From Parcubacteria group bacterium Gr01-1014_38 (GTDB lineage Bacteria; Patescibacteriota; Andersenbacteria; UBA10190; CAIZMI01), in assembly GCA_007376145.1 (NCBI GenBank), contig VMFP01000007.1, positions 1-54,070 on the forward strand: DNA of 54,070 nt. The letters are read 5' to 3'. Of the stretch, positions 1 to 50,200 are shown piece by piece. How positions within the stretch are numbered: the first letter of the stretch is position 1; every line of letters begins with the position of its first letter. The notes below the pieces were generated by a model. It did not search any database. It was given only the letters and a program-made list of their open reading frames with translations, and was not told where the DNA came from. The position numbers and the translations under genes were made by a program.

Positions 1-16
1 CCGCACCGACCATAAG

Positions 17-44
17 AAAAAGCGGCTTCCGTCTCGGAAGCCGC
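17..44 (-). terminator. Intrinsic terminator read on the minus strand, just beyond the left end of the CRISPR array
   Basis: A 9-bp stem GCGGCTTCC/GGAAGCCGC (22-30/36-44) closes a 5-nt loop. On the minus strand it is followed by a T5 run (A-run 17-21 on the plus strand). Confidence 0.55.
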
Positions 45-75
45 GGAAAGGACAACCATTGCTCCCCATCCTCGA

Positions 76-795
76 GTCACCACCTCCTCCCCCCGTCTGT
101 ATGGAGGTTCGGACGGCCGAAATCTCCTCGGTGAGTTGGATTAGCCCGTCACAACCTCCTCCCCCTCTGTACGGAGTTCGGGACTCTTGTCAAAACCCTG
201 TTGAACTTGCAGCCGTCACAACCTCCTCCCCCTCTGTACGGAGTTCGGGACTATACTCCGTGAGTACCTCGGCATGGATGCTCGTCGTCACAACCTCCTC
301 CCCCTCTGTACGGAGTTCGGGACGGAGGGACCAGCCGACCACCTCTCGTGTGAAGTCACAACCTCCTCCCCCTCTGTACGGAGTTCGGGACTCGGCCAGG
401 CAACGGGGTGTTCGACCATCAGTCACAACCTCCTCCCCCTCTGTACGGAGTTCGGGACGCAGAAGAATCCGCCCGGCCTTTCGACAGAGTCACAACCTCC
501 TCCCCCTCTGTACGGAGTTCGGGACTGGGATTGAAAAACGAAGAGGGATTGCAGGCGTCACAACCTCCTCCCCCTCTGTACGGAGTTCGGGACGGTCTCC
601 CACCGAAGAGGCTCATCGACACTGTCACAACCTCCTCCCCCTCTGTACGGAGTTCGGGACGGTCTGAAGTATTCGCGCAAGTTCCTCTAAGTCACAACCT
701 CCTCCCCCTCTGTACGGAGTTCGGGACACCGGGGAAACCGAGCCGATCAAGCTCGATGGTCACAACCTCCTCCCCCTCTGTACGGAGTTCGGGAC
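76..795. CRISPR. CRISPR array of 11 repeats (10 identical 37-nt repeats plus 1 decayed terminal repeat) and 10 unique spacers
   Basis: The repeat GTCACAACCTCCTCCCCCTCTGTACGGAGTTCGGGAC starts at 148, 215, 287, 355, 422, 489, 557, 624, 691 and 759. A decayed 39-nt copy lies at 76-114. Spacer lengths are 33, 30, 35, 31, 30, 30, 31, 30, 30 and 31 nt, with no two alike. The decayed left repeat and the minus-strand terminator at 17-44 suggest minus-strand transcription. Confidence 0.95.
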
Positions 796-1243
796 TATTC
801 CGTTTTTCCCTTTGGAGAGCGGTTTTCCGATGGGCGTTCTCCTGGAGAAGGGAGCAATACCTCGGGGGTGGTCTTCCGTGAGGATATTCCCCCTCTCGGC
901 CGCTCTCGGGACGTTTCCCAAACGAACAAACAATGGGGAGGCCAGGGGGTGAGTCCCCCTGGTTCGGCTTCGGGCCAGTGAGGGATCGTGTGAATGATCC
1001 CTCTCCTTCTCCGGAGGCGCCACGCTCTCCTTCAAAGAGAGCGCTTCACCTCCCTGGCCAACGCGCACGTGCACGAAGTCCCAGGGTCAATTCCGGGGTG
1101 CGCTTTGGGAGTGACAAGGCCTTGGGTACTAGCGGGTTGTCGAGGGAGCAGGGCAGGAGAGAGTGTACCCGTGAAGCGGGAGGCGTCAAGGGGGCCTCCA
1201 AGGTGACCGGCAGGAGGCCGTGATGATGCTTCGCCCCGGTTGC
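796..1243. other. ORF-poor structured intergenic region, a putative CRISPR leader and/or non-coding RNA, containing a half-copy of the repeat
   Basis: The A/T-richer segment 796-850 abuts the last repeat. Positions 888-912 match the 3' 25 nt of the repeat at 18/25 (blocks TCCCCCTCT and TCGGGAC). Perfect hairpins lie at 942-962 (8 bp), 980-1003 (8 bp) and 1023-1043 (7 bp). The only ORFs here overlap each other on opposite strands, and one runs into the last repeat. Confidence 0.4.
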
Positions 1244-1867
1244 TCACTGCCGACTCACCACTGCCTGGACGGGTTTGAAGGAGGGCCGATGGATCGGCGT
1301 GGGACCGAGCTTCTTTAGCGCCCGCTGGTGCGCTGGCGTGCCGTAACCCTTGTGTCCCGCGAAGCCGTAGCCCGGATATTGCTGGTCCAGTTCTGTCATG
1401 AGCGCATCACGGTGGACCTTCGCGACAATCGAAGCGGCGGCGATCGAGCGGACCTTCCGGTCTCCCTTGATCACCGCCTCGTGGTACCAGGGAAGATCGG
1501 GGATCTGGTACGCGTCGGTCAAGACGGCATCCGGCGGTGGCCGAAGCGCGGCGAGTGCACGGCGCATCGCTTCTACCGCGGCCCAGTGGAGATTTAAGGT
1601 TGCGATCTCGCGCGGGCTGGCATCACCCACCGCCCACGTGATGGCCGATCGCTGGATATGTTCCGCGAGCCGTACACGCTGAGGTTCGGTGAGGGTTTTA
1701 CTGTCGCGGACGAAATCAATGCGGATTTCCACTGGAAGGATGACCGCCGCGGCCACCACCGGTCCGGCCAAACACCCCATGCCCACCTCATCGACGCCGG
1801 CGACCAGCCGGAACCCGCGATTCCACAGCGTGCGTTCGAACCGGTAGGTTGTGCGAAGCGGACTCAT
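1244..1867 (-). CDS. rnhB: Ribonuclease HII
   Basis: 207-aa ORF with the motifs GVDEVGMGCLAGPVVAAAV, DSKTLT, IKGD, SIAAASIVAKV and GYGFAGHKGYGT, typical of RNase HII. Confidence 0.9.
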   Translation of the reverse strand: MSPLRTTYRFERTLWNRGFRLVAGVDEVGMGCLAGPVVAAAVILPVEIRIDFVRDSKTLTEPQRVRLAEHIQRSAITWAVGDASPREIATLNLHWAAVEAMRRALAALRPPPDAVLTDAYQIPDLPWYHEAVIKGDRKVRSIAAASIVAKVHRDALMTELDQQYPGYGFAGHKGYGTPAHQRALKKLGPTPIHRPSFKPVQAVVSRQ

Positions 1868-1899: not shown

Positions 1900-2637
1900 T
1901 CACCACAAACGCTGCTGGGCGACGTGCGGTGTCGCTGGCGTGACGAGTCCGCCGTGCCCGGTTTTGCGGACTGCGTTGACGTGGAGGTGTGCCAGACGGC
2001 TTGGTTCCGGAAGTCGGTATCCGTGGGTCAACCGCAGAACCAGAGCGACCGCCGAGGGCAGATCAATCTTGTGACCGACAGAAATGTACAACGATTGTGT
2101 TCGCTCTTTGGTACGTACAATACGGCCGATTTCCTCTCCGCGATCGCGTAAGGGAACGAAATCCCCCATGTTCGGCCCAGGGTTGGCCTCGATCCCCACG
2201 AGGAGACTTTTGGCTACCCCGACGGTTGGGCGGTCCAGGAGGAGGCCCAGGTGGCAGGCAATGCCGAAACGGCGAGGGTGGGCCCACCCGTGACCATCAA
2301 CGAGGAAGGCGTCCGGCTCACTTTGGAGCTGCTGGAGGGCACCCACGACCGCCGGAAGCTCTCGAAAGGCCAGGAGGCCGGGAATATATGGGAATGATGT
2401 CGACTGCTGCGCAGCGGTGGTTTCGACAATCTCCGTCGGGTCATGTGCGCGACAGACGACGATCCCTGCGGTCAGCAGCGGATGTTCCTTTTCTGAAGAA
2501 ACATCAACGCCGGCAACAAGCTGAACGTTCTCCGCATCGAGCGGTGGTCCTTGGACCACCGATGTTGAAAGCCGTTCCTGGAGGCGAACGGTCTCCTCCG
2601 GCGTGATGTCCCATCCGTGCAACACTCGAATATCCAC
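1900..2637 (-). CDS. nfi: Endonuclease V (deoxyinosine 3' endonuclease)
   Basis: 245-aa ORF with VAGVDVS, YIPGLLAFRE and VDGHGWAHPRRFGIACHLG, matching the EndoV signature blocks. Confidence 0.9.
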   Translation of the reverse strand: MDIRVLHGWDITPEETVRLQERLSTSVVQGPPLDAENVQLVAGVDVSSEKEHPLLTAGIVVCRAHDPTEIVETTAAQQSTSFPYIPGLLAFRELPAVVGALQQLQSEPDAFLVDGHGWAHPRRFGIACHLGLLLDRPTVGVAKSLLVGIEANPGPNMGDFVPLRDRGEEIGRIVRTKERTQSLYISVGHKIDLPSAVALVLRLTHGYRLPEPSRLAHLHVNAVRKTGHGGLVTPATPHVAQQRLW

Positions 2638-2998: not shown

Positions 2999-5900
2999 TT
3001 GGAGCGAAGAACGAACATGACGCCACCAGTCTCTTGGTCGGAGACGCGAGCGACCGAGTCTCCCTCCGCGCCGACTTCTGTTTCTCTGCCTTCCAAAGAG
3101 CGAACAGAAACCCGCCGAAAAGGTCTTACTGTTCCACGACGTTTCACGACGCCCGGCGTTGACCCGTTGACGACCGTGCGGTGGGACAAACGCGTCTCAC
3201 GGATCCGCGATGAGTCCGGGAACGTCATTTTCGAACTCCGCGACATCGAGGTTCCCAGTTCCTGGAGCCAGGTGGCCACCGACGTTATGGTAAGCAAGTA
3301 CTTCCGCCGCGCCGGGGTTCCACAGCACCACCCCGATGGGACTCCGAAACTCCATCCCGACGACTCGCCGGTCCTCGGCGGCGAAACGTCTGCGCGACAA
3401 GCCATCCACCGGCTTGCCCTCGCCTGGCGCTGGTGGGGAGAGCAGTACGGATATTTCGCGACGCCACAGGATGCCGAGGCGTTTTTCGACGAGGTCACGT
3501 ACATGTTGGTGCACCAGATCGTCTCGCCGAATTCCCCGCAATGGTTCAACACCGGACTGAAGCTCGCCTACGGCATCAGCGGTCCTCCCCAAGGGCATTG
3601 GTACGTGGACCAGGAGACGCGGGAACTTCGGCAGTCGGAGGATGCGTATACTCGCGCGCAGGCGCACGCCTGTGGGCGCTGGGATACCAAACTCTTCACC
3701 GAGGAGGGCATCCTTAACCTGGGCGAGATCGTGGAGAAAAACCGCACGGGGCTTCGGGTGTTTGATGGGGAACGATGGGTGCGGACTCTTGCGGTGAAGA
3801 GCAATGGAGTCCGGAAGCTCTTCCGCGCGACTTTGAAGAATGGTCAGTACCTCGAATTCACGGATGACCATCTTGTTTGGGCGTCCGTGACTCCCCGCCG
3901 AATAGGCGGCCAGTGTGCCTGGGTTCCTCTCCGGGAGTGCCTCGGCCGTCGCGTTCAGGTTGTACGGGCTCCAGAGGGAGTGCGGGCGCGCGTCCCCGTT
4001 CGGACTGCCGAAGCAGCACTGGCGGGGTATCACATTGGAGACGGCTACACGGGGACGTACGACGGCATTACGCACTTCGGTGTCGCCACCGTCACGAACG
4101 ACGAGTTTGGGTACGCGACGCGGCTCTTCCGTGAGGTGTTTGGTGCCTACACGGTGACGGAGAAACCGCAGGTGAGTCCTCTCTACCGCATCGTGCGCCA
4201 TGACTTTACGCACACGCGCCCGTTTTCTGATCTATACGAGCTCGGGCGCGGGAGCCGAAACGTTGGGGTCCCCGATGTGATCTTTACCGCCCCGCGAAAG
4301 GTTCAGGCGGCGTTCCTTCAGGGGCTCTTCCAAGCCGATGGGTGCGTGCGCATTCGGAGACAAGGAAACTGGCGGGCTGGCAATATCTGTCTTACCACGG
4401 TTTCCGAGCGCCTCGCGCACGACGTCCAGACACTTCTTCTTGGGTTGAGTATCCACTCTCGAGTGAGCTTTGAACGCGACGACCGGCCTGGTCGTGCCGG
4501 TACGTATCAGGTCATCATTGCGTACGACTCGGAACGCCGCCGGTTCGCCGAGTTGATCGGTTTTCCCACTCATGAGAAGCAGGCGAAGTTGCGCCGCTTA
4601 AACGCGGAGGTCGTTGGTAAGGCGAAGGCTGCGATCTCCGAAGAGGAGGTGGTCTCCATCGAGCCGATCGGCGAGGAAGAGGTCTACGATATCCAGACGG
4701 AGAGTGGGAAGTTCCTCGCGAACGGAGTCGTTGTCCACAACTGTTTCATCCAATCGGTGAAGGACGCGATCCTGGGGGACGGGGGCATCATGGACCTCGT
4801 CGAGCGCGAGGCGCGCATCTTCAAGTATGGGTCGGGGACCGGGACGAACTTCTCCACGCTCCGCGCAGAGGGGGAGCCCGTCTCCGCAGGCGGGACTGCC
4901 TCCGGCCTCATGAGCTGGCTTCGGATCTACGATCGCGCCGCCGCCGCCGTCAAGAGCGGCGGCACCACCCGGCGTGCGGCGAAGATGGCCATTGTCAACA
5001 TTGATCACCCGGATATTGAGAAGTTCATTTGGTGGAAGGCCGACGAGGAAAAGAAGGTTGCGGCGCTGGTTACCGCCGGATACTCGAGTGACTTCAATGG
5101 CGAGGCCTACCAGACCGTTGCTGGGCAGAATTCCAACAATACTGTCCGCGTCACGAACGAATTCCTGCGGGCGGTAGAGAACGATGCGGATTGGCATCTC
5201 CGCTGGCGGACGGATCCGGACCACATCAGTAAGACGATCAAGGCGCGGGGGCTCTGGCGGGATATCGCCGAGGCGGCGTGGCAGAGTGCTGATCCGGGCG
5301 TCCAGTACGACACCACCATCCAGGAGTGGAATACCTGTCCGGCCTCCGGGCGCATCAACGCGACCAACCCCTGCTCCGAGTACGTCTTCCTCGATGAGAC
5401 GGCGTGCAACCTTGCCTCCATCAACTTCATGAAGTTCGTGGACTCCGAGACCGGTGCGTTCGACGTGGAGGGATACGTGCACACCATCCGTCTCTGGACG
5501 GCCGTTCTCGAGATCACCGTCGCCATGGCCCAGTTGCCCTCCAAGGACATCGCCCTCGGGACATACAACTTCCGGACGCTGGGGCTCGGGTATGCCAACC
5601 TCGGCACGCTGCTCATGGTCTGGGGCGTTCCGTACGACAGCCCGAAAGCCCGGGCGATTGCCGGAGCCCTCACGGCCATTCTCACGGGAGAATCCTACGC
5701 GATGTCCGCAGAGCTCGCGGCGATCCTTGAGCCCTTTCCCGAGTACGGAAAGAATCGCGAGCAGATGCTCCGGGTGATCCGGAACCATCGCCGCGCCGCC
5801 TACGATGCGCCGCCGGAGAAGTACGAAGGACTCTCGGTGAAACCCGTGGCCATTGACCAAGAGCTCTGCCCGGAGGGCTTGCGGAAAGTCGCCCACCGAG

Positions 5901-7429
5901 CATGGGACCGAGCGCTCGAGCTCGGCGAGAAATACGGGTACCGGAATGCGCAAGTGACGGTCATTGCTCCCACCGGCACCATCGGCCTCCAGATGGACTG
6001 CGATACCACGGGGGTGGAGCCGGATTTCGCGCTCGTGAAGTTCAAGAAGCTCGCCGGCGGCGGGTATTTCAAGATTGTGAACCAGTCGGTCCCGCGTGCG
6101 CTCAAGACGCTCGGGTACACGCCGGGAGAAATCGCGGATATCGTGCAGTACGTCACGGGGACTCTTTCCTTCAACAATGGGGTCCCCCACCTCAACCGAG
6201 ACACGCTGCTCGCCAAGGGATTCGCCGATGACGACCTCGGTCGTCTGGAGCAGCAGCTCCCCGGCGTCTTCCATCTCTCTATGGCGTTCACTCCCACCAT
6301 CTTCGGGGAAGAGCTGCTCCGTCGCCTCGAGCTCCAGGAGAAGGCGAAGGAGAGCCCAACCCTCAACATCCTCGGAGCACTCGGCTTTTCCCTTCAGCAG
6401 ATTGAAGAAGCCAACGAAGTCATCTGCGGCCGACAGACGGTCGAGGGCGCGCCGCACCTCAAGCCCGAGCACCTTCCCGTGTTCGACTGTGCGAACAAGT
6501 GCGGTCTGAAGGGCGTGCGGTTCATTCCCTACGACGGTCACGTGAACATGCTCGCTGCCGTCCAGCCCTTCGTCTCCGGCTCGATATCGAAGACCATCAA
6601 TATGCCGGCCGAGGCCACCGCGGAGGAGATCGAGCGGGTGTACTGGGAGGGATGGAGGCTCGGCCTGAAGGCGAACGCGCTCTACCGCGACGGGAGTAAG
6701 ATGAGCCAGCCGCTCTCCACGAAGTCCAGCGATGAGACTGCAGGCGTGCGGGTCGTGGAGAAAGTCGTCGAGAAAATTATCGAACGGCCCCGGCGGGTGA
6801 AGCTCCCGCGGGAACGCTCGGCCATGACGCGGAAGGTGAACCTGGCCGGAGAGGAATTCTATCTCACGGTGGGGCTCTACCCCGACGGGAAGCCGGGAGA
6901 ACTCTTCATTACCATGGGGAAGGAAGGCTCTTTCGCCTCCGGCTTGGCCGATGCGTTTGCGAAGATGGTGAGCTTGAGCCTCCAGTACGGCGTTCCCCTC
7001 GAGAATCTCATTCGCCAGCTCCGCCACATGCGGTTCTCGCCGGACGGGTTTACCGGCGACCCGGATATTCCGACGGCGAGCTCGGTCACAGACTTCTTGG
7101 CTCAATGGTTGCAGAAGACCTTCCCGAACGGCGTGCACACGGAGATGGGAAAGTTGCCATTGCCCAGCGGAAATAAGCAGCAGGCGCACATCTCTGCCAC
7201 GTCTCCCAGTATCACGGAGGACATGGAAGACGCGCTGGCGGCCCAGAACGGAGGCCCCGCTTCTCTGTCCCCGACGTCTGGCACGGTCGTGACCTTTGCG
7301 CCCAACCAGCCACTCCACGGGTACGGCTTCACCGGCGACAAGTGCTCTGACTGTGGCTCCCTCCGCATGGTGCAGAACGGCTCCTGCAAGAAGTGTCTGG
7401 ATTGCGGGACAACCACCGGATGCTCGTGA
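2999..7429 (+). CDS. nrdJ: Ribonucleoside-triphosphate/diphosphate reductase, class II (adenosylcobalamin-dependent), intein-containing precursor
   Basis: 1476-aa ORF. It has the N-terminal block GLTVPRRFTTPGVDP..VRWDKR, the active-site block ATNPCSEY and a C-terminal Cys-rich tail (CSDCGS...CKKCLDCG). The start may be 2999 or the ATG at 3017. Confidence 0.9.
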   Translation: MERRTNMTPPVSWSETRATESPSAPTSVSLPSKERTETRRKGLTVPRRFTTPGVDPLTTVRWDKRVSRIRDESGNVIFELRDIEVPSSWSQVATDVMVSKYFRRAGVPQHHPDGTPKLHPDDSPVLGGETSARQAIHRLALAWRWWGEQYGYFATPQDAEAFFDEVTYMLVHQIVSPNSPQWFNTGLKLAYGISGPPQGHWYVDQETRELRQSEDAYTRAQAHACGRWDTKLFTEEGILNLGEIVEKNRTGLRVFDGERWVRTLAVKSNGVRKLFRATLKNGQYLEFTDDHLVWASVTPRRIGGQCAWVPLRECLGRRVQVVRAPEGVRARVPVRTAEAALAGYHIGDGYTGTYDGITHFGVATVTNDEFGYATRLFREVFGAYTVTEKPQVSPLYRIVRHDFTHTRPFSDLYELGRGSRNVGVPDVIFTAPRKVQAAFLQGLFQADGCVRIRRQGNWRAGNICLTTVSERLAHDVQTLLLGLSIHSRVSFERDDRPGRAGTYQVIIAYDSERRRFAELIGFPTHEKQAKLRRLNAEVVGKAKAAISEEEVVSIEPIGEEEVYDIQTESGKFLANGVVVHNCFIQSVKDAILGDGGIMDLVEREARIFKYGSGTGTNFSTLRAEGEPVSAGGTASGLMSWLRIYDRAAAAVKSGGTTRRAAKMAIVNIDHPDIEKFIWWKADEEKKVAALVTAGYSSDFNGEAYQTVAGQNSNNTVRVTNEFLRAVENDADWHLRWRTDPDHISKTIKARGLWRDIAEAAWQSADPGVQYDTTIQEWNTCPASGRINATNPCSEYVFLDETACNLASINFMKFVDSETGAFDVEGYVHTIRLWTAVLEITVAMAQLPSKDIALGTYNFRTLGLGYANLGTLLMVWGVPYDSPKARAIAGALTAILTGESYAMSAELAAILEPFPEYGKNREQMLRVIRNHRRAAYDAPPEKYEGLSVKPVAIDQELCPEGLRKVAHRAWDRALELGEKYGYRNAQVTVIAPTGTIGLQMDCDTTGVEPDFALVKFKKLAGGGYFKIVNQSVPRALKTLGYTPGEIADIVQYVTGTLSFNNGVPHLNRDTLLAKGFADDDLGRLEQQLPGVFHLSMAFTPTIFGEELLRRLELQEKAKESPTLNILGALGFSLQQIEEANEVICGRQTVEGAPHLKPEHLPVFDCANKCGLKGVRFIPYDGHVNMLAAVQPFVSGSISKTINMPAEATAEEIERVYWEGWRLGLKANALYRDGSKMSQPLSTKSSDETAGVRVVEKVVEKIIERPRRVKLPRERSAMTRKVNLAGEEFYLTVGLYPDGKPGELFITMGKEGSFASGLADAFAKMVSLSLQYGVPLENLIRQLRHMRFSPDGFTGDPDIPTASSVTDFLAQWLQKTFPNGVHTEMGKLPLPSGNKQQAHISATSPSITEDMEDALAAQNGGPASLSPTSGTVVTFAPNQPLHGYGFTGDKCSDCGSLRMVQNGSCKKCLDCGTTTGCS
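3671..4741 (+). mobile_element. Intein with a LAGLIDADG homing-endonuclease domain inserted in nrdJ
   Basis: It begins at the Cys codon TGT at 3671, after ..AQAHA. It ends ..VVVHN (AAC 4739-4741) and is followed by the +1 Cys of CFIQSV. Two LAGLIDADG-like blocks are present (ALAGYHIGDGY, FLQGLFQADGCV). Length is 357 codons, in frame. Confidence 0.85.
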
Positions 7430-8079
7430 AGCGCCAGCGACGCAGAGAAACACACATCGCGAAGAGCGGCCCCGGAAGACGGGGCCGCCTTCGACCCCAA
7501 CCCCGAACATCAGACCGCGGGCTCACCATCGTCTACTATGGCGACGGGAAGGGGAAAACCACGGCGGCGCTCGGGGCGGTGCTCCGCGCGGTCGGTCAGG
7601 GGTGGCGGTGCGTTGTGGTCCAATTCATCAAAGGCTCCTGGCCGTCGAGCGAGCGGGTGGCCATTCCCCGGTACCTTCGTGACCATGTCACGATCGAAGC
7701 CGGTGGGAAAGGATTCGTCGGCATCCTTGACGATCGTCTCCCGCGCAGCGAGCACAAGAAGCAGGCACGTGTGCTGTTTCGGGAAGTCAGGCAGCGCTTC
7801 ACGCTCTGGGCACGGGCAGCCAAGCGACCAGAGCTCACCCCCCGTCCGCCGCAACTCGTGGTCCTCGATGAAATTCTTGATGCGGTGGAATTCGGCTTTC
7901 TCACGCAAGCAGAGGTGGTTCAGCTCATCAAAGCGAAGCCAGTATCTCTCCATCTGGTTCTCACCGGCCACAAGAAGTTTCCACGGATTCTCGCCGCCGC
8001 CGACCTCGTCACCCGCATGGTCAAAGAGAGACATCCCTACGATCAGGGATTCCTTGCGGTGCGGGGGTTGGATTATTAG
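7420..8079 (+). CDS. cobO: Cob(I)yrinic acid a,c-diamide / cob(I)alamin adenosyltransferase (CobO/CobA/BtuR family)
   Basis: It has the P-loop block IVYYGDGKGKTTAALG, VVLDE, and the C-terminal block LVLTGHKKFP..AADLVTRMVKERHPYDQG. The ATG at 7420 overlaps the nrdJ stop (7427-7429). An alternative ATG lies at 7393. The N-terminal ~35 aa are basic and non-conserved. Confidence 0.8.
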   Translation: MLVKRQRRRETHIAKSGPGRRGRLRPQPRTSDRGLTIVYYGDGKGKTTAALGAVLRAVGQGWRCVVVQFIKGSWPSSERVAIPRYLRDHVTIEAGGKGFVGILDDRLPRSEHKKQARVLFREVRQRFTLWARAAKRPELTPRPPQLVVLDEILDAVEFGFLTQAEVVQLIKAKPVSLHLVLTGHKKFPRILAAADLVTRMVKERHPYDQGFLAVRGLDY

Positions 8080-8990
8080 CGCTGCAGGCGAGTGTAGAGA
8101 TGCGCTGCGCCGCGGAGAGCCCCGTGCTCTGCGCGTGCCTGCTCAATTGGGAGATCTCGGTGCAGCTCGGGGAATGATGTCCGGGTCTGGATCGTTTGAC
8201 GCACCGTGTCGCGGAACAGAGAGAGTTTCATGGCGGGCACGAGAAACCCGCCGGTGTAGACGATTTTTTCGATTTTCGGGATGAGGTTCAGACGGTATGC
8301 CCAGGCCTTCCCGATTCCTTCCGCAACGTAGCGGTACAGCTCGACCGCCCATCGCTCACCATGCGTCACCGCTGCATCGGCGAGTGCATTGGGATGCGTC
8401 CCTTTGGGAATCGTGATCTTCTTCTGCTTCAGGATGAGCCGCACCCGCTCTTCCACTTGTCCGCCGGAGAAGTGAGCCTCATTACAGTCCTCCGCGTGTC
8501 CGAGGCCGCAGCGCCGACCCTCGAAGAGCCCGCTGGGCGTGTGGCCGGGTTCCGCAGCGACGATCTCGCCGTTGAGCAGCAGGGCTCCACCCCACCCCGT
8601 GGAGACCGTGTCCATGAAGGCCCATCGGCAGCCCTTCAGTGCTCCAGCGACCAGCTCGCCGGCGAGCGCTGCCTCCATATCGTTGAACAGCACGCAGGGC
8701 TTCCCCGTCGCACGATGAATCTCTGCGCCGAGGTCAAGAACGTTCTGCTTGATAAACGGGATGTTTGGAGAGGAGCGGACGCGCTGGTGGTTGAGGACAA
8801 CGCCTGCGATGGCGAGGGCGATTCCCTCGGTTTCCTGTGCGAGGGGCCGGAGCCATTGCAGAAATCCTTCCAGTGTTTGCGGCGTCGGATCATCCCGGAC
8901 CTCGCCCACGCGCTCCAGAGTTCCACCGGTGGAGGTCAGGACGGCGGCGCGCGCATGCGTTCCACCGATGTCCGCGGCCAGAATCTGCAT
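8076..8990 (-). CDS. ROK-family sugar kinase (glucokinase-like)
   Basis: The N-terminal block MQILAADIGGTHARAAV is the ATP-binding DxGGT motif, and a ROK-like block GHTPSG..RRCGLGHAEDC is present. Its stop overlaps the cobO stop convergently (TTAG). Confidence 0.75.
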   Translation of the reverse strand: MQILAADIGGTHARAAVLTSTGGTLERVGEVRDDPTPQTLEGFLQWLRPLAQETEGIALAIAGVVLNHQRVRSSPNIPFIKQNVLDLGAEIHRATGKPCVLFNDMEAALAGELVAGALKGCRWAFMDTVSTGWGGALLLNGEIVAAEPGHTPSGLFEGRRCGLGHAEDCNEAHFSGGQVEERVRLILKQKKITIPKGTHPNALADAAVTHGERWAVELYRYVAEGIGKAWAYRLNLIPKIEKIVYTGGFLVPAMKLSLFRDTVRQTIQTRTSFPELHRDLPIEQARAEHGALRGAAHLYTRLQR

Positions 8991-9073
8991 ATTCTCAGGG
9001 TATAGGGAACAGGGGGTGGGGTATAGGAACATGCGTCTTGGCCGAAACAGGCGCCTTCGGTATCCTATGCGAT

Positions 9074-9388
9074 GTGGTTGATGTCACTCCCGAGAATTTT
9101 GAAGCCGAGGTTTTGAAATCCGACAAGCCGGTGCTCTTGGAGTTCTGGGCCTCGTGGTGCGGCCCGTGTCACGTGATGAAACCCATTCTCGAAGAGCTTG
9201 CGGAAACGGAAAAAGAACGACTGAAAGTTGTTCGGGTGAGCGCAGAAGACCATCCGGAGTTCGCGAACCAGTATTCCGTCCTTGCGATTCCGACGTTCTT
9301 CCTGTTCCAGGCAGGGAATGTCGTCGGTCATCACATCGGCGCCATGTCCAAGGACCAAGTCGCGAAGTTCGCGGGCGTTTCCTCGTGA
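9074..9388 (+). CDS. trxA: Thioredoxin
   Basis: It carries the canonical WASWCGPCH active site and is 104 aa from the GTG at 9074. The track ORF extends further upstream, but there is no ATG close to the conserved N-terminus. Confidence 0.85.
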   Translation: MVDVTPENFEAEVLKSDKPVLLEFWASWCGPCHVMKPILEELAETEKERLKVVRVSAEDHPEFANQYSVLAIPTFFLFQAGNVVGHHIGAMSKDQVAKFAGVSS

Positions 9389-9473
9389 CTTTTTAAGATC
9401 CTGCGAGGGCATCAAGAGTCCCGCGACGAGAACCACCCCTACGGGTAACGTTTGTGAGAAGTACAATGAGACA

Positions 9474-10244
9474 ATGCGCGTGGTTTCATTGGCACCGAGC
9501 GCGACAGAAATTTCCTTCGCCCTCGGGTGTGGCGATCGGCTGATCGCCCGGACAGCATTCTGCGACTATCCGCCGGAAGCGCACCATGTCCCCGCGGTTG
9601 GCGGCTGGACGACGGCCAACGTTGAGTCCGTTGTTGCGCTCAAGCCCGATCTCGTACTCACCTCCACATTTCTTCAGGACAGCATTGTGGCGGAGCTGCG
9701 CGCACGAGAGCTGCAGGTCTGCCACACCGATCCGCGAACATTCCTGGATGTTTTAGAGACCTTTGAGACCATTGCTGGCGCTCTCGGCGTTCCCGAGCGT
9801 GGAAAAGAGCTCCGTGCGCACACCGAGGCAGAGCTTCGTGTCTACGTCCCGACCCCGATGCCGTCCTCCCCCACGGTGTACGCCGAAGAATGGCATGAAC
9901 CACCCATGGCCTCTGGGAATTGGGTTCCGGACCTTATCACGGCCGCTGGCGGGCAGTCCTTCCTTCCACCAGGGGAGCGGAGTCGGAAGGTCACGCTGAA
10001 CGAAGTCCAGCAGTTCGATCCCGATGTCGTCGTGCTGAATTACTGCGGGATGGAGCGTGTGAATCCCGACGCGCAGCGGTCGCTTCTCATGACGCGTCCG
10101 GGGTGGGACACTCTTCGCGCCGTGCGCGCTGCGCATGTGTTCGTCGTACCGGATTCACTGCTGAACCGGCCAGGCCCCCGGCTCGCTGCCGGAGTGCAGG
10201 CCATTCGCCAGGCGGTCGTGGCGGCTTACGCCATCACCTTGTAG
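9474..10244 (+). CDS. Periplasmic-binding-protein type 2 family, BtuF-like corrinoid/iron-chelate binding protein
   Basis: MRVVSLAPSATEISFALGCGDRLIARTAFCDYPPEA..VPAVGG..NVESVVALKPDLVLTS resembles the BtuF N-lobe. No signal peptide or lipobox is seen at the ATG at 9474. Confidence 0.7.
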   Translation: MRVVSLAPSATEISFALGCGDRLIARTAFCDYPPEAHHVPAVGGWTTANVESVVALKPDLVLTSTFLQDSIVAELRARELQVCHTDPRTFLDVLETFETIAGALGVPERGKELRAHTEAELRVYVPTPMPSSPTVYAEEWHEPPMASGNWVPDLITAAGGQSFLPPGERSRKVTLNEVQQFDPDVVVLNYCGMERVNPDAQRSLLMTRPGWDTLRAVRAAHVFVVPDSLLNRPGPRLAAGVQAIRQAVVAAYAITL

Positions 10245-10477
10245 ACAAGCGCTCCTTCTTTGATTTTCTGGTCCACCTTGATTCCGACGGCGTCCCCTTT
10301 TTTCGCGGAGTCAACGGATGCGTGCTCGATTTGCATCGAAGTCACTTCCTGATCAAACTCCTCCTCGCCCCGCTTGAATTTAATCGTGTCGCCAACCGCG
10401 AGCTTGCTGGCAAGCTCGACAATGGCCACACCAACCTTGTCGTAGAAGTGGACCACTTTTCCTACTTCGGTTTCCAT
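10226..10477 (-). CDS. Small EF-Tu domain-2-like beta-barrel protein (translation-factor-like)
   Basis: 83-aa ORF METEVGKVVHFYDKVGVAIVEL..GDTIKFKRGEE..QIEH..V..AKKGDAVGIKV, the pattern typical of stand-alone EF-Tu_D2-like proteins. Confidence 0.6.
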   Translation of the reverse strand: METEVGKVVHFYDKVGVAIVELASKLAVGDTIKFKRGEEEFDQEVTSMQIEHASVDSAKKGDAVGIKVDQKIKEGALVYKVMA

Positions 10478-10566
10478 GGCAGCGATGGCCTGCTACGGAT
10501 AAGTGCTCCTACCGTAGCGCGGTGGCGTCCACAGCGCAAGGGCAGCGATTTTCGTGATGTTTTCTC

Positions 10567-10641
10567 TGGTCGGGGACGAGGGAGTCGAACCCTCTGCCTC
10601 ACGGTCCCGAACCGTGCGTTCTACCGATGAACTAGTCCCCG
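10567..10641 (-). tRNA. tRNA-Pro (anticodon CGG)
   Basis: Reverse-complement cloverleaf: acceptor CGGGGAC/GTCCCCG, anticodon stem CACGG/CCGTG with loop TTCGGGA, T-loop TTCGACT, encoded CCA. Confidence 0.85.
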
Positions 10642-10645
10642 GACA

Positions 10646-10720
10646 TGGTGGACCCGGCGGGACTCGAACCCGCGATCTTTAGCATGCCATGCTAACGCTT
10701 TTCCTCTAAGCTACGGGCCC
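10646..10720 (-). tRNA. tRNA-Ala (anticodon GGC)
   Basis: Acceptor GGGCCCG/CGGGTCC with the G3:U70 alanine identity pair. The anticodon loop is ATGGCAT, and CCA is encoded. It lies 4 nt from tRNA-Pro. Confidence 0.85.
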
Positions 10721-24032: not shown

Positions 24033-25433
24033 GTGCGAGGGATGCGAGGAACGACCGGAGCGCTTGCGTTGCTTCTTTTCAGCGTGTTCGGGCTCTCGGC
24101 GTATGCGGGTGGCGGCGGACGTGTGCTTTCCGCGGAAGCGGTCGGCTTGGTGTATCCGTCAACGAACGGGAAGGACAAGCTCCCGGACGGATTTCTCATT
24201 CAGGCGCAGGGGAAGCCCGAGGTCTACGTGATCAGGGGCGGGAAGAAGAGCCCTCTCCACCGCCCCATCCTCGATCGCTGGCTGGCTGAAGCGCACTACT
24301 TCAAGCACGACGTGATCATTCAGTTTCCTGCCTCCGAGTTGGCGAAGTACCAAACTGCTTCACCGCGGAATACGTTCTTCATGGGGAGGATCCTTACCGC
24401 CGGGGGGCCCCGATACTTCATTGACGACCAGCTCCGGCGGCGGCCGATCTCCCCCGCCGTCCAAGCGGCGCTGAAGTACCCGTCGCGGATTCTCTACACC
24501 GTCCCGCAGGGGATTCTCGACGCGTTTCCGGAAGGACCCGCCATTACGCGCACCGATCGGCACCCCGGCGGGACGGTGATGTACCACGGCCCGTACCACG
24601 GCGGCACGGTGTACCTCATCCGCGGGGATGATACGAAGCACGAATTTCTCCAGGACTACATCTACGAAACCATGGGCTTTCCGTGGAGCAGCCAAATTCT
24701 TCCCGTGAGCGCCGAGGAACTTGCGCGGTACAAGCGGGGGGCGCATCTCTCGACCTACCCGGACGGGTGGATTGTGGGGAAGGACACTCTGTTGTACCTC
24801 ACGCAGGGCGGGAAGCTGCGCTGGATTTCCGGCAAGGCGATCTTCAATGCTCTGCAGTACAACCCGAAATACGTGCTGCGCGTGTTTCCCGAGTTCTTCA
24901 AGCAGTACGGCACGGGCGATCCCGTCACGGCGTTCAAGACCGTGACGGCAACCGTCTCCGGCGATTCCGTCCGCAATGCCTATGCTGCCGTGGGGCTGGC
25001 GGCTCCCGGAGCGACAGGCACCAGCGTCACGGGGTCCCTCCGTGTTCCGCCGGAGATTCGTCAGCTCATTACGAACGTCAACACGTTCTTTTTACAGATT
25101 TATGACCGGAATCCGACGCCGGAGGAAAATCGCTTCTGGGTGGACTATCTGTACAAAGGGGAGGCGCAGACCAAAGAAGAGTTCATCGAAGCGCTGAAAG
25201 ATGCGAAGGCCGGCGGACGTCGGCCCACGATTACCTCGCGGGATGCTGTGCTTCCTCCCGAACAGCTCCTCCGGTATGTGAATTTCCTTTTCCACTACGT
25301 CTTCGGACGATTCCCGGACGGCGATGAGAAAACCTTCTGGGACAATCGAGTGACCTCCGGTCTTCGGAAAACCATCACCGACCTCGGCGGCAACATGCAG
25401 TACCTGAAGGATCAGGGGATGACGAAGCGGTGA
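24033..25433 (+). CDS. Secreted hypothetical protein with C-terminal DUF4214-like repeats
   Basis: It has the signal peptide MRGMRGTTGALALLLFSVFGLSAYA. Two C-terminal blocks (FFLQIYDRNPTPEENRFWVDYL, FHYVFGRFPDGDEKTFWDNRV) resemble DUF4214. Confidence 0.6.
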   Translation: MRGMRGTTGALALLLFSVFGLSAYAGGGGRVLSAEAVGLVYPSTNGKDKLPDGFLIQAQGKPEVYVIRGGKKSPLHRPILDRWLAEAHYFKHDVIIQFPASELAKYQTASPRNTFFMGRILTAGGPRYFIDDQLRRRPISPAVQAALKYPSRILYTVPQGILDAFPEGPAITRTDRHPGGTVMYHGPYHGGTVYLIRGDDTKHEFLQDYIYETMGFPWSSQILPVSAEELARYKRGAHLSTYPDGWIVGKDTLLYLTQGGKLRWISGKAIFNALQYNPKYVLRVFPEFFKQYGTGDPVTAFKTVTATVSGDSVRNAYAAVGLAAPGATGTSVTGSLRVPPEIRQLITNVNTFFLQIYDRNPTPEENRFWVDYLYKGEAQTKEEFIEALKDAKAGGRRPTITSRDAVLPPEQLLRYVNFLFHYVFGRFPDGDEKTFWDNRVTSGLRKTITDLGGNMQYLKDQGMTKR

Positions 25434-25475
25434 ACTTGAATTTTTCGGCGCGCCAATGCAGGCTGTCTCGGTGAC

Positions 25476-26768
25476 ATGAAGGTTGCCGTCGAGAAGGCCC
25501 CGAAATCCCGGGTGCAACTCCGCGTGGAAGTACCGCCTGATGAGGTTCAACCGTTTCTCGAGCGTGCGGCGCGCGAGCTCTCCAAGGAGCACGCCCCGAA
25601 AGGCTTTCGGCCCGGAGCGGTTCCATTCGAGGTGATGCGGAGCGCCGTGGGCGATCAGGCGCTCGTCGAACGAGCACTGAAGGAGTTCGTTCCCCGCACC
25701 TACGTGCAAGTACTCCTCGACCACGAGGACCTTGAAGCAGTCGGACAGCCCGAGGTAAAGGTTGAAGCCGTCGCGTTGGAGACTCCCTGGGTCTACCTGG
25801 CGACCGTCGCCGTGATCCCCGAGGTGCAGCTCGGGACGTACCAGAGCATTCGCGCCGAGCGCCGCGCCGTGACCGTGGACGACGCTGAAGTGCAGCGAGA
25901 ACTCGAGCGGTTGCGGAAGCTGCGCGCGAGTTACCTCACCGTGCCCCGAGGCGCACAGAACGGCGATCGGGTGGACGTTACGGTTTCTGCCACCGTGGAG
26001 CAGACACCGCTGGATATCGGATCGCCCGAGAAGCACCCGCTCATTCTTGGGGAGAGTCACTTCGTGCCGGGATTCGAGCAGCATCTCCTCGGGATGCGTG
26101 AAGGTGAGCAGAAGACGTTCTCCCTCGCCTTTCCAGAGAATCATCATCAGTCGCAGCTCTGCGGGAAGACTGTGGAATTTACCGTGACCATGGGGACGGT
26201 CCAGCAGCGCGTGCTCCCTGCACTTGATGACGCGTTCGCCCGTGGGCTCGGGAAGTTCTCCGGTCTCCAGCAGCTCACAGAGCAATTCACGAAGAACCTG
26301 CGGGAGGAGAAGGAGGCCCGTGAGCAGGATCGGTTCCAGCAGGATCTCCTCCGAGAGGTGGTCGCGCAGGCGACGTACGGGGAATTCCCCGACGTGCTCG
26401 TGGAGCGGGAGCTGGACACCATGCTTGCAGAGCTCAAGGAAGGGATAGCCGACCTCGGTCTCTCTTTCGAGGTGTACTTGAGTCAATTGCGCAAGAGTCC
26501 GGCGGAGCTTAAGGTCCAGTGGCAGCCCCAAGCCCTCACGCGGCTCCGTGCGGGGTTGGCGCTCCGCGCCATCGCCAAAGCGGAGAAGATCGCCGCGACT
26601 GATGCGGAAATCCAGGAAGAGATCAACGGCGTGCTGAAGCAGTTTCCCAACCTCGAGGAAGCAAAGAAGCGCCTCGACCTCGATGCGCTGAGCGATCTCG
26701 CGGCCGGTACCGTGCGGAATCGGAAAGTCTTCACGTTCCTCGAAGGTCTTGCCAACCGGCGATCCTAA
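25476..26768 (+). CDS. tig: Trigger factor
   Basis: 430-aa ORF with the N-terminal block [28 protein letters not shown] and trigger-factor PPIase/C-domain organisation. It lies directly upstream of clpP. Confidence 0.85.
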
Positions 26769-26814
26769 GCGACGGACTGGACCCGGCACATACTCCCCCG
26801 CTATACTGTCTCCC

Positions 26815-27459
26815 ATGAGTCGACCTTCCCAAGGTTTTCCCCGGAATGATGACGACCGTGATCCCGGACTGTACCTTATCCCCACCGTCATTGAGAAAAG
26901 CCAATTCGGGGAGCGCGCCTACGATATCTACTCGCGTCTCTTAAAGGAGCGCATCATCTTCTTGGGCAGTCCCATCAGTGACGCAGTCGCGAATACCGTG
27001 ATTGCGCAGCTCGTGTTCCTCGATAATCAAGATCCCAAGCGTGACATCATGCTGTACATCAACTCCCCGGGCGGGGTCGTGACGGCTGGGCTCGCGATTT
27101 ACGACACGATGCAGTACGTGTCGTGCCATGTCTCCACCACCTGTGTGGGGATTGCCGCGAGCATGGCCGCGACGCTCCTCGCCGCCGGGGCGAAGGGGAA
27201 GCGCATCGCGTTGCCGAATTCCGAAGTGCTTCTCCATCAAGTCATGGGCGGCGCGGAGGGTCAAGCCACGGATGTCGAAATCTCCGCGAAGCATCTTCTC
27301 TCCATCAAGGAGCGCCTGAACAAAATCCTCGCAAAGCACACCGGGCAACCCATCGGCAAGATTGCCAAAGACACGGACCGCGACTTTTACCTGAGCGCGG
27401 AAGAAGCCAAAGAGTACGGCGTCGTTGACAAGATTGTCGTCCCGAAGAAAGGCGCGTGA
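26815..27459 (+). CDS. clpP: ATP-dependent Clp protease proteolytic subunit
   Basis: Motifs are [46 protein letters not shown] (catalytic Ser), LLHQ (His) and [10 protein letters not shown]. Confidence 0.92.
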
Positions 27460-38372: not shown

Positions 38373-38464
38373 TGGTGCCAGGGGTGGGAGTCGAACCCAC
38401 ACGGTCCTTTTGACAGGACCAAGGGGTTTTAAGCCCCCTGCGTCTGCCATTCCGCCACCCTGGC
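38373..38464 (-). tRNA. tRNA-Leu (anticodon UAA)
   Basis: Acceptor GCCAGGG/CCCTGGC, anticodon loop CTTAAAA, a 21-nt variable arm, T-loop TTCGACT, encoded CCA. Confidence 0.85.
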
Positions 38465-38539
38465 TGGAGGCGACGGGCGGAATCGAACCGCCGTATAGGG
38501 CTTTTGCAGAGCCCTGCCTTACCACTTGGCTACGTCGCC
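38465..38539 (-). tRNA. tRNA-Cys (anticodon GCA)
   Basis: Acceptor GGCGACG/CGTCGCC, anticodon stem GGGCT/AGCCC with loop CTGCAAA, U73 discriminator, encoded CCA. It directly abuts tRNA-Leu. Confidence 0.85.
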
Positions 38540-47285: not shown

Positions 47286-50200
47286 TCACTCACCCGGCGT
47301 GGTGAAGCTGTAGTAGGCGTCGAACGCGTGCTGCCCCCGCAGATCCGTGGCGAGCACCTCGAAGAAGATCTTGGTGCCCCGCGGGAGGAGCCGGAGGACG
47401 AGGCGGTGGCGCGTGGTGAAGCTGTCCTCGAAGCGTTCCTCGCCGTAGAGCGGGGAAGGCCCAAAGTTCACCTTCCCCCGGGCGAGGCGGTTCGTCTGCC
47501 AGGTGACCACCGCGGAGGTCTTGGTCAGATCGGCGACGGACACGTCGGTGATCCGGAGCGGTTCCGCATAGACGCGGCGGGCGGTTTCGACGGCGCCGCG
47601 GACGAGGACGCTCGCCGCGCGGAGGCCGCGGCCCGCGGGGGCCACGAGGCGGGCCACCCGACGCTCGCTCTCCGTCGCGAGCGTCAGCCGCTCCTCGCGG
47701 GCGCGCACGAGAATCCCTCGAATTCGGGACCACAGCGTTGTGGTGGTGACGACGAGACGGCCGGTGACCTTGGGAATGAAACCGGAGAGATCGGAGAGCG
47801 CGGCGTCGCGACGCTCGGCCAGGGAGAGATCGGGCGGATCCGCCTTGCTCTGCCGCGCCAGCGTGCGGAGGGCGGCGAACTCCCGGGCGGAGAACCCAAA
47901 GAGGGAGGCGAGACGCGTCCGGACGGTCCGGATAGCGGTGCGCGCGGCGCTCCGGAGGGTTTTGGTGACCGAAGCAATCGTGGCGTCGAGACGCTCGAAC
48001 GCGCCTTGGGGAAGCAGGCGCTCGAGGAACTCCTGGAGGTTCCTCGCCTCCCGCAGCCGGCGGATCTTTGCGGCCTTCTCCAGCTCCTGGAGCTGGAGCG
48101 CCGTGGGTGTCCTGGAGGGAGTTTCCCCTCTCCGGATCCGCTCCGCGATGTCCTCGAGGGAGGGTGGCGGTTTGGCGAGGTCACTCGCGAGGGTCGGCGC
48201 GGTCGTGTCAATCGTGACGGTCCGTGCGGCGAGGGTGGCCTCGTTTCCGAACGCGTCCGCCGCCCAGAGCTTCACGGTGTACGTGCCGTCGGGAAGCGGG
48301 GAGAGGGGAGCGATGGTCGTGGAGACGGTGGCGGTCTTGGTGAGCGCGCGGTCATTGTCCTGATCCCATTCGGAAGCGAGCGTGGCATCCCGCTCGGCCA
48401 CCGCAGTCGATTCCCGCCCATACCAGAGCTCGTAGTGGCTGAAGTCCTCCTCGGCGACGGGAGTCCAGGAGGCGCGAAGCGTGCTGCCGGACGCGGCCAC
48501 CGAGAAGGACGTGAGACCCCGCGGGGCTTCGTCGTCGACTTGAAAGCGGGAGGAGGTCACCGCGGTGCCGTCAACGGTCGAGTCATTCGGGGTGACGCGG
48601 ACTCTCACGAGGGTCGGACGGGAATCGATCGCGCCGCCCCCGTTGTCGGCGTGCTTCGTGTTCCAGGCGACCGTGAGGAGGGCGTTCCCGCGGTTCGTGG
48701 GGATGCCGGTGAGCTGGTACGTCACGGTACTCCCGTTGCTCACGGTCACGTTCCCCGCGGTGGAGGAAGCCGAGGCGATGTACGCCTGCCGCCAGTTGCT
48801 CCCGTCGTCGAGGGAGTACTGGACCCGGAGGCGCGTCTGGTTGTTATCCGGGTCAGAGAGGAGTGTTTGGAAGGAGGCGTACCCGGAACCGTCGGTGGCT
48901 TGCGCGGGGGTCGTGAGGTTCGCGGCGGAGGGAGCGCTATTGAAGTTCCAGCCGGTGTTGTTCCCGGAGTCGGTGATGTTGAGGCCGGCCGTCGTGATGC
49001 CGGTGGCGTTCACGTTGTTGCTGTCCTTCACGTCGAGGTACTCGATGCTCCGCGTTCCTTGCGGATCGATCCGCCACTGCGTGCCGTCGGTGCTGCTGCG
49101 GAGGGAGAGGAGAGCCCCCGAAGCCCCTTTCGCCGTCCAGGTCCCAACGACGGTCTGCGTGCTCGATGCCCCGGAGGGAAAGGTGAGCGTGCGCGCCGTC
49201 GTGACCGTCTTCGAGAGGTTGTTGAACGTCGTCGCGCCGGAGAGCGTCTGATCGGTCCCGTCGAGGGTGACGGTCCCACTGTTATGCGTGAACGTCCCGC
49301 CGCTGTGCGTGAAGTTCCCGGAGACGGTCATGGTGCCGGAGGTGGCGGTGAGGGTCCCGGAGGAGATGGTCACCGCCCCGTTGATGTCGTGGGTCCCCGA
49401 GCCCCCAGTGAAGGTGCCGCCACCCACGGTGAGGGCGCCGACGGTCGTCGCGAGTGTGCCGGGTGAGAACGTGCCCGCGGTGACAGTGAGCGTGCCGTCG
49501 ACGTCAAGGGCATTCGTCGCGAGCGACAGGGTACCCGCGCTCTTGTTCACCGTGAGGTTCTGAAAGTCCTGGCCCGTGCCGGTGCCGCCGGTGGTGAGCG
49601 TCTGGGCTCCCGACCCGTCGAAGGTCACGGTGTTGCTCCCCGAGGTGTACGTCCCGCTGTTGCTCCAGTCCCCCGCAAGGGTGACGTTCTGCCCGTTGCT
49701 GTTTACGGTGCCCGCGGTGATCGTGAGGGTCCCGTTCACGTCGAGGGTGGCCGTGTGGATCCAGGAGCCGCCGGTCCCGTTGAACGTGAGGTGGTTGTAG
49801 CTGTTCCCGGCAACGAGGGAGGTGTACGAAGCCGCCCCGTCGTACGCGACGGTTCCCGAGTCCGTGTCGTTCGTGAAGCCGGTGAGGGTCTCCCCGCCGG
49901 TGAGGCGGAGCGTCGCGTTGTTCACAAAGCTCCCGCCGGTATTCGTCAGGTTCTGCCCATCGAGGTCAAAGGTGCCGGCAGTGAGCGTGAGGGTGCCACT
50001 CACGGTGACGGCGCCATTGGGCTCCCACACGCCTCCGCTCCCGTTGAAGGTGAGGTTGCTGTACGTGTTGCCCGCCGCGAGGGCGGTGGTGTATGAGGCG
50101 GTGCCGTCGTAGGTGACCGTAGAGCCGGAGGAAACCGTATCGATTGTGGAGACGGTCTCCCCGCCCTGGAGTTGCAGTGTCCCGGACGCACTTAAGGTGA

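Follow-up and report, generated by a model that had tools for sequence, protein, structure and literature searches.

A CRISPR array at a contig edge in an Andersenbacteria genome, likely part of a compact Cas12f-like type V locus with a short Cas1

At the left end of contig VMFP01000007.1 of Parcubacteria group bacterium Gr01-1014_38 (Andersenbacteria; assembly GCA_007376145.1) lies a CRISPR array. The window, that is, the whole stretch of DNA analysed, is the entire 54,070-bp contig; its source is a groundwater metagenome run (X1), and a lake-water run (X2) contains relatives. The array begins 75 nucleotides (nt) from the left contig end, so that its cas genes are out of sight for a reason that reflects the contig boundary, not biology. 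We consider it likely that it is the cas1-side one of two arrays flanking a rare and very compact type V locus, with the operon immediately left of the contig end; the effector is provisionally assigned to it by association with related loci. The features of the array region are as follows, with the basis of each in brackets.

1–45, plus strand: final codons of a short cas1, or what is left of one, running off the contig end (homology to cas1 3' ends)
22–44, minus strand: intrinsic terminator that would end array transcription, GCGGCUUCCGAGACGGAAGCCGC plus UUUUUCUUAU (terminator scan)
76–114, minus strand: decayed terminal repeat of 39 nt, the oldest and leader-distal one (repeat comparison)
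115–795, minus strand: array proper, ten identical repeats and ten spacers; the repeat in the transcribed sense is GUCCCGAACUCCGUACAGAGGGGGAGGAGGUUGUGAC
Starts at 148, 215, 287, 355, 422, 489, 557, 624, 691, and 759: ten exact 37-nt repeats, GTCACAACCTCCTCCCCCTCTGTACGGAGTTCGGGAC (0 matches in shuffles)
252–286: spacer 3, with a protospacer in co-occurring DNA (906-nt X1 contig, 0 mismatches; 844-nt X2 contig, 1 mismatch)
459–488: spacer 6, with a protospacer in co-occurring DNA (1,675-nt X2 contig, 0 mismatches; same flanks in X1)
759–795, minus strand: leader-proximal repeat, the presumed site of new spacer integration (polarity)
796–1161, minus strand: conserved, structured, presumably transcribed leader of ~365 nt (comparison with related flanks)
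876–912: repeat-like pseudo-repeat in the leader (direct orientation; ~20 of its 37 positions agree with the repeat, 71% over 888–918)
942–962, minus strand: leader hairpin 1, CCAGGGGG-TGAGT-CCCCCTGG (covariation)
980–1003, minus strand: leader hairpin 2, GAGGGATC-loop-GATCCCTC (covariation)
1162–1189, minus strand: promoter-like TTGACG-16-TACACT, which would drive leader and array (promoter scan)

The array is genuine. Ten identical 37-nt repeats, one decayed copy, and ten unique spacers of 30–35 nt had been reported in a preliminary description of this DNA, and our repeat and shuffle scans bear this out; the spacers, all different, measure 33, 30, 35, 31, 30, 30, 31, 30, 30, and 31 nt in order. 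Identical direct repeats within the generic CRISPR range of 23–55 nt and unique spacers of similar length are thus combined with the generic CRISPR polarity, in which a conserved leader and a decayed repeat mark opposite ends. Since the conserved leader adjoins identical repeats at the right end and the decayed copy lies at the left, the repeat at 759–795 is the probable site of integration of new spacers. The internal hairpin of the repeat, previously described as weak, is so in both orientations (z about 0). Three spacers (185–214, 526–556, and 661–690) do have the low G+C content formerly ascribed to them (47–48%), but as an argument for captured foreign DNA this is weak, because the remaining spacers stand at 54–65%, against 62% for the window.

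Relatives of the array were found with a spurious plus-strand open reading frame (ORF) that runs through it (59–667) and that gave two matches in a protein database, namely L008, a contig of the NCBI metagenome-assembled genome GCA_964569135.1, and L009, a JGI metagenome contig. Since gene callers tend to place false ORFs across CRISPR arrays, a protein search with such an ORF offers a way of assigning an 'orphan' array at the edge of a contig to its system. Array A of L008 has 8 repeats that are the exact reverse complement of the window repeat; the repeat of array B is a close variant ending in …GGAGGTTCGGAC, which is also the end of the decayed repeat at 76–114, and the L009 repeat is near-identical to that of the window. 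The two L008 arrays are mutually inverted and enclose a cas1 of 279 codons, and outside each of them lies a sequence of ~400 nt that is ~90% identical to the right flank of the window array (796–1190), a flank that is also recognisable in L009. L008 spacer and flank strings are present in X1 as loose ends at a depth of 9.5, compared with 10 for the window, which suggests that L008 may be a second locus of the same organism. The L008 unit (7975–10660) lies within the str operon, with fusA on one side and tuf on the other, and the small gene and the Cas12f-like gene of the related loci described below are gone from it. In L009, four consecutive repeats (543–988) carry the same ~46-nt palindromic insertion in mid-repeat, giving 83-nt units, and one spacer occurs twice; this looks like a small hairpin element that was inserted and then spread by duplication. 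As for the repeat itself, its exact 30-nt core had no match in GTDB representative genomes or JGI metagenomes, a second pattern built on the conserved repeat half had none in GTDB representative genomes, and no repeat strings were found in the literature. A degenerate repeat-end pattern gave three JGI matches, which all proved to be one single-copy, non-CRISPR sequence and were dismissed as chance.

Four independent contigs (L011, L012/L013, L014, and L015) share one order: effector gene and short cas1 on the same strand, then the array. No Cas2, Cas4, or other cas gene was called in them. The array abuts the stop codon in L008, in L014, and in a relative from X2. In L014 and L015, a second and inverted array, which has a terminator of its own, ends just upstream of the operon promoter, so that the normal layout is one of two arrays that flank the operon and both point towards it. 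The Cas12f-like gene is itself directly preceded by a gene for a small Arg-rich protein of 89–102 residues (L011, 7900–8169; L014, 271–579; L015, 148–456), which has no PADLOC family and a faint S15-like Pfam match only; an accessory or regulatory role is possible. Between the effector gene and cas1 stands a further conserved intrinsic terminator, CCCCGYGTGGACAACCACRCGGGG plus a U-run (L009, 270–315), which may attenuate the expression of cas1; in L008 this hairpin is now found after array B (9812–9845).

The effector gene lies directly upstream of the short cas1 and encodes 564–608 residues. The PADLOC model PDLC01689 ('Cas12f; CAS-V-F effector') matches the protein near full-length, with E values of 5.8e-64 (L011), 3.8e-63 (L014), and 3.8e-58 (L015), and matches more weakly in L012 (6e-11) and in a fragment in L009 (8.7e-9). 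This Cas12f model is the best and only strong one, with no Cas12c or Cas12d match among the PADLOC matches listed. At the start of L009 stand the last 82 residues of a family member, with 51% identity to L011, and the L009 array follows directly. A profile of the family retrieved only Cas12f or TnpB-type chains from the PDB, with weak E values of 0.2–1.4. In these weak alignments the family motif LG(I/V)H(F/W)G falls on GVDLG of Cas12f, which places a His at RuvC-I in four of four members, and G(I/V)E(R/N) falls on IQIE(N/D)L, which retains the RuvC-II Glu; a candidate RuvC-III Asp (..DAEQA..) is present in 4 of 5 members, the RuvC-III assignment being uncertain. The family thus departs from the canonical RuvC Asp-Glu-Asp triad of subtype V-F. 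The proteins end ~40 residues past a YKA..V..I.. motif, with no Cys pairs and no CxxC zinc ribbon in that segment, whereas in V-F a CxxC..CxxC ribbon lies between RuvC-II and RuvC-III. The effector had no match in plasmids, phages, or IMG/VR, fell into no Pfam family, and had no match in the PDB as a single sequence.

The Cas1 of these loci is short in every homologue (252–296 residues) and has no N-terminal domain; in that of L008, the match to Cas1 profiles begins only at about position 80. When 1.84 billion representative proteins were searched with a profile, this returned ~40 clusters of 170–295 residues that match from their own N-terminus and form a distinct group, with ordinary Cas1 of 330–350 residues and fusion proteins ranking behind them (E ~1e-39 and weaker). 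The uniform length of the homologues and the ~40 short clusters indicate that the truncation is not an accident of a single contig. The catalytic residues E93, H158, D170, and E173 are invariant, and an AlphaFold model is all-helical (predicted local distance difference test score 80), with Cas1 structures as its best PDB matches. Named relatives of the short Cas1 belong to Candidatus Uhrbacteria and Andersenbacteria, of the Candidate Phyla Radiation.

The window joins this group at its very edge. Bases 1–45 can be aligned to the 3' end of cas1 in L008, L014, and L015, as well as to a cas1 remnant in L009; frame 2 reads ..RTDHKKKRL.., comparable to the Cas1-family C-termini ..KKRLR.EAA*, and in run X2, at the equivalent place, RLRREAADE* abuts a repeat directly. 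A 2,699-nt X1 contig at a depth of 9.8 (window ~10) spans window positions 1–93 with 4 mismatches and 2 gaps and extends 2,380 nt leftward. About 40 ORFs of the window were scanned against Pfam, which revealed housekeeping genes only, no Cas domain, and no complete cas gene. The view that the visible flank holds no cas gene therefore stands as far as complete genes are concerned, but not for bases 1–45, which are homologous to a cas1 3' end. Of the two possibilities raised at that stage, effectors left of the window or an orphan array, the former is favoured, since the contig ends in cas1-homologous sequence and the X1 contig continues beyond it. It had also been proposed that a standard operon to the left would make this an ordinary locus; an operon is very probably there, but it is not a standard one. 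The repeat, in which the preliminary description recognised no Cas9, Cas12a, or type I/III consensus, is indeed none of these and would by association be that of a rare Cas12f-like type V variant.

Several observations weigh against placing an intact operon of this kind next to the window array. The window itself contains no complete cas gene of the system, and the link is made through other contigs with the same repeat family and leader. The cas1-like frame in bases 1–45 has a 2-nt indel, the hairpin loop being 2 nt longer than in the homologues, and no in-frame stop; this may reflect a true frameshift, an extended C-terminus, or a contig-end error. In sequence, the effector resembles solved Cas12f structures weakly (E 0.2–1.4), and the two protospacers of the array, described below, have the minus-sense 5' flanks ..ATCTT and ..GGCGC, which give no consistent 5' protospacer-adjacent motif (PAM). 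Finally, the system can lose genes, as L008 is without the effector and L009 without cas1, and the genome of the window could likewise hold a remnant. In that case the array would be orphaned or decaying, its operon partly or wholly deleted with the cas1 3' hairpin left behind, and it would be served in trans or by nothing. We regard this as unlikely. It would account for the indel and the missing stop codon and has precedents in L009, which keeps exactly the cas1 3' hairpin after the loss of cas1, and in L008, which keeps cas1 with an inverted array in place of the effector; it also agrees with the right flank of the array, as the closest relatives of the window's RNase HII have no array at the corresponding site, indicating a recent, mobile-looking insertion. 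On the other hand, the X1 contig extends 2.38 kb leftward at a depth of 9.8 versus ~10, the ten repeats show no differences, co-occurring DNA contains matches to two spacers with 0–1 mismatches, and the first 16 nt of the window are closer to the intact L008 cas1 than to the L009 remnant. An adjacent operon, with the window array on its cas1 side, is thus the reading that we retain.

The right flank consists of rnhB (1244–1867, minus strand), nfi (1900–2637, minus strand), tRNA-Arg(CCT), and an intein-bearing nrdJ, in agreement with the earlier annotation of this side as housekeeping. The RNase HII encoded by this rnhB is on record only in this contig; in its closest relatives (72–78% identity) rnhB is followed by nusB, rnc, and smc, without an array, so that the CRISPR locus is a lineage-specific insertion.

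Spacers 3 and 6 have protospacers in X1 and X2 contigs with non-repeat flanks and a depth of 8–13, so that the array records encounters with DNA of the same communities. Five spacers (3 and 6 included) searched against IMG/VR and the whole array searched against phage and plasmid collections produced one chance 28-nt match only. The spacer search suggested beforehand thus yielded protospacers for these two spacers, but no consistent 5' PAM and no self-targets in the window, where none of the ten spacers has a match elsewhere. The window array, both L008 arrays, and the L009 array have zero spacers in common. Taken with the ten identical repeats and the two protospacers in X1 and X2, this suggests that the array is probably active.

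A right-to-left reading of the array, from a leader at 796 onward, had been proposed beforehand and is now supported by four independent lines of sequence evidence. First, decayed repeats face cas1 in the window, in both L008 arrays, in L009, and in L014. Second, the opposite flank is conserved and ends in a promoter-like site, whose -35 is invariant and whose -10 is TACACT or TAGACT (three copies); homology between the copies ends just upstream of the -35. Third, the minus-strand terminator noticed beyond the decayed unit, which the scan locates at 44–22, has counterparts in all seven loci inspected (window, L008, L009, L011, L012, L014, and L015), where a GC hairpin and a U-run lie at the cas1 3' end on the strand opposite to cas1. 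The stem sequences differ in L011 and L012, and the L012 hairpin lies past the stop codon, which argues that the hairpin is conserved as a terminator and not as coding sequence. Fourth, among repeat variants the minus-sense 3' half (…GGGGAGGAGGUUGUGAC) is invariant and the other end variable.

The flank that would serve as leader is a structured RNA. In hairpin 1, AGGGGG/CCCCCT of the window is replaced in L009 by GGAGCC/GGCTCC around a similar loop, amounting to four compensatory pairs; in hairpin 2, the loop differs in L008 array B and the stem is wholly replaced by CGGGGG/CCCCCG in L009. RNAalifold found compensatory changes in 11 leader pairs (four sequences, three of them mutually close), and it is this covariation of the stems that argues for a structured RNA. 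On either strand, the leader's folding is far superior to that of shuffled sequence (z -3 to -6); folding energy was dropped as a means of strand assignment because both strands fold equally well. A search of window positions 1–1300 against Rfam, at the gathering score and at E <= 5, returned nothing relevant. In X2, the leader part 1039–1104 occurs at 5–8x the depth of the neighbouring genome, and several diverged versions of 780–1190 are present in both runs, from which it follows that many arrays with related leaders must exist in these communities.

Within the leader, the pseudo-repeat at 876–912 is conserved in 4 of 4 leader copies. For it to serve as an anti-repeat, the two RNAs would have to be made from opposite strands, and this bears on a reading in which the polarity is reversed: plus-strand CRISPR RNAs (crRNAs) would arise by read-through from cas1, and the right flank would be a convergent minus-strand gene for a trans-activating CRISPR RNA (tracrRNA), with 5' stems and a 3' anti-repeat at 912–876 that would pair with the spacer-side end of the repeat, the usual layout of a Cas12 tracrRNA. 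Beyond the conservation of the element, the pairing of the L009 pseudo-repeat with the plus-sense repeat fits this arrangement, since its score of 47 exceeds the maximum of all shuffles (43), and the promoter-like site would suit a tracrRNA as well. The corresponding scores of the window and L008 are no better than those of shuffles, however, and the search for an anti-repeat in the leader, by RNAduplex and by pairing-aware local alignment, was rejected on the same grounds, with L009 in one orientation as the exception. The protospacers of spacers 3 and 6 both have G-C-Y immediately 5' in the plus sense (..AGCT and ..CGCC), as this reading would have it, but with two protospacers the agreement is not significant. 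The reversed reading also conflicts with the opposite-direction terminator between cas1 and array in seven of seven loci, with the decayed repeats facing cas1, and with the fact that the end of the repeat that would form the plus-sense handle is the variable one. We judge it improbable and keep to minus-strand transcription. A tracrRNA-like or omega-RNA-like role of the leader is possible. The idea that the conserved stretch following the pseudo-repeat is a fixed guide against the operon promoter was dropped, as the two did not match.

There is also the question of whether the array belongs to the operon at all. It might depend on an unrelated class 1 (type I/III) system elsewhere in the genome, its proximity to cas1 and to the Cas12f-like gene being coincidental; a 37-nt repeat, spacers of 30–35 nt, and a ..GUUGUGAC end presumably resemble those of some type I/III repeats. 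Nevertheless, the repeat family adjoins the same effector–cas1 operon or its remnants in six independent contigs, the array follows directly after the stop codon in three of the cases (L008, L014, and the X2 relative), and no class 1 gene is seen in the related contigs, which makes such a coincidence highly improbable.

Given an adjacent operon, a mode of action can be proposed. The precursor of the crRNAs would start at 1189–1162 on the minus strand, run through the ~365-nt leader and the array, and stop at 44–22, within the 3' end of cas1. Spacers of 30–35 bp would be inserted at the leader-adjacent repeat (759–795) by the short Cas1 acting alone. Processed crRNAs, with a handle derived from the invariant 3' end of the repeat (..GGAGGUUGUGAC), would direct the Cas12f-like protein to DNA that they match. 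Since His stands where the RuvC-I Asp would be and no zinc ribbon is present, this presumably TnpB-derived effector may bind or silence its target instead of cutting it in the usual way; at the same time, the RuvC-II Glu is kept and a candidate RuvC-III Asp is present, so that 'rearranged but active' is as possible as 'inactive'. The full combination, that is, an undescribed type V subtype in which an effector with a rearranged RuvC binds or silences, a Cas2-free short Cas1 measures out 30–35-bp spacers, and the leader at 796–1161 is a cis-encoded scaffold made as one transcript with the crRNAs, is offered tentatively, and we are doubtful that all of its parts hold together. If the leader is indeed a scaffold RNA, it would represent a new way of supplying one.

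The remainder of the window contains a few further features of note. An intein that includes a homing-endonuclease domain of the LAGLIDADG type is present in nrdJ (2999–7429, plus strand), the gene for a B12-dependent ribonucleotide reductase of class II (Pfam matches Ribonuc_red_2_N, LAGLIDADG_3, Intein_splicing, Ribonuc_red_lgC, and TSCPD); in two relatives (L002 and L003) nrdJ encodes ~1,117 residues without intein or LAGLIDADG domains. Two minus-strand ORFs, of 599 residues (25092–26891) and 135 residues (26941–27348), match no Pfam family at E <= 1 and may be real novel genes or false ORFs of GC-rich sequence; the former was considered as an effector and dropped, being unrelated to the Cas12f-like family. 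An ORF of 1,548 residues (47286–51932, minus strand) has weak immunoglobulin-like and fibronectin-type matches only, and a counterpart of 1,513 residues stands at the corresponding place on L001, a second assembly contig, which comes either from the same organism or from one nearly identical to it. The window also has twelve tRNA genes spread over 10570–42640, with close pairs at 10570–10720 and 38376–38539.

Among known systems, the related loci come closest to subtype V-F in their small effector, which is matched nearly full-length by the Cas12f/V-F profile and whose PDB sequence matches are of Cas12f/TnpB type only, as well as in the 37-nt repeat and in the array lying downstream of the effector, the usual Cas12 order (PMC10691335). 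They differ from V-F in the RuvC-I His for Asp, in the absence of a C-terminal CxxC zinc ribbon, in the second inverted array upstream of the operon, and in a leader where no convincing anti-repeat was found. Adaptation sets them apart as well: archaeal Cas14a–c loci carry cas1, cas2, and cas4, whereas here a shortened Cas1 is the sole adaptation gene. The greater Cas12f branch is mostly without adaptation genes (PMC10691335).

Cas1 as the only adaptation protein, a 'mini-integrase', is a trait shared with V-C and V-D (PMC9419969, PMC10691335). The effectors differ, being of ~600 residues with a Cas12f profile here and large (Cas12c or Cas12d) there. The short-Cas1 relatives come from the Candidate Phyla Radiation, in which CasY (Cas12d) also occurs. 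Repeats of 37 nt and spacers of 30–35 nt contrast with the unusually short repeats and 17–19-bp spacers that Wright et al. reportedly described for V-C and V-D in 2019. If a short Cas1 alone indeed makes 30–35-bp spacers, the link between the absence of Cas2 and short spacers would be challenged.

With the RuvC-altered type V effectors whose action is binding and not cleavage (V-M Cas12m, V-C Cas12c, V-K Cas12k, and the predicted V-O and V-P), the family shares the replacement of a catalytic RuvC residue. The RuvC of type V effectors has been inactivated repeatedly and independently, and some of these effectors silence by blocking transcription (PMC12669027). Here, by contrast, a change is shown for RuvC-I only, with the RuvC-II Glu retained and a candidate RuvC-III Asp in 4 of 5 members and, unlike in V-K, there are no transposon genes. 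The likeness to TnpB and its omega-RNA lies in a small RuvC-fold protein, a long structured RNA encoded beside the guide region, and a leader in which a repeat-like element follows a structured scaffold, which recalls the scenario of CRISPR arrays arising from omega-RNA segments (PMC10691335). A true multi-spacer array and Cas1 are present here, however, without transposase or transposon ends, and the structured RNA is encoded beyond the array as seen from the effector gene.

Approximately 50 independent captures of TnpB by CRISPR arrays, with adaptation genes gained at least 12 times, have been inferred, and the same source lists forty more V-U branches (PMC10691335). The effector family may well be one of these catalogued branches, given its strong match to an existing profile; no description of the effector–short cas1–array architecture was found in the available literature. 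Compact Cas12-family proteins are sought as small genome-targeting tools and provide the clearest record of the path from transposon TnpB nucleases to CRISPR effectors (PMC10691335, PMC12669027). The window array probably belongs to a type V variant that is catalogued but apparently uncharacterised, one that joins traits seldom seen together, namely an effector of Cas12f size with an altered catalytic site, a Cas2-free Cas1, in this respect like the V-C mini-integrase, with spacers of normal length, and two convergent arrays with a long structured RNA ahead of each.

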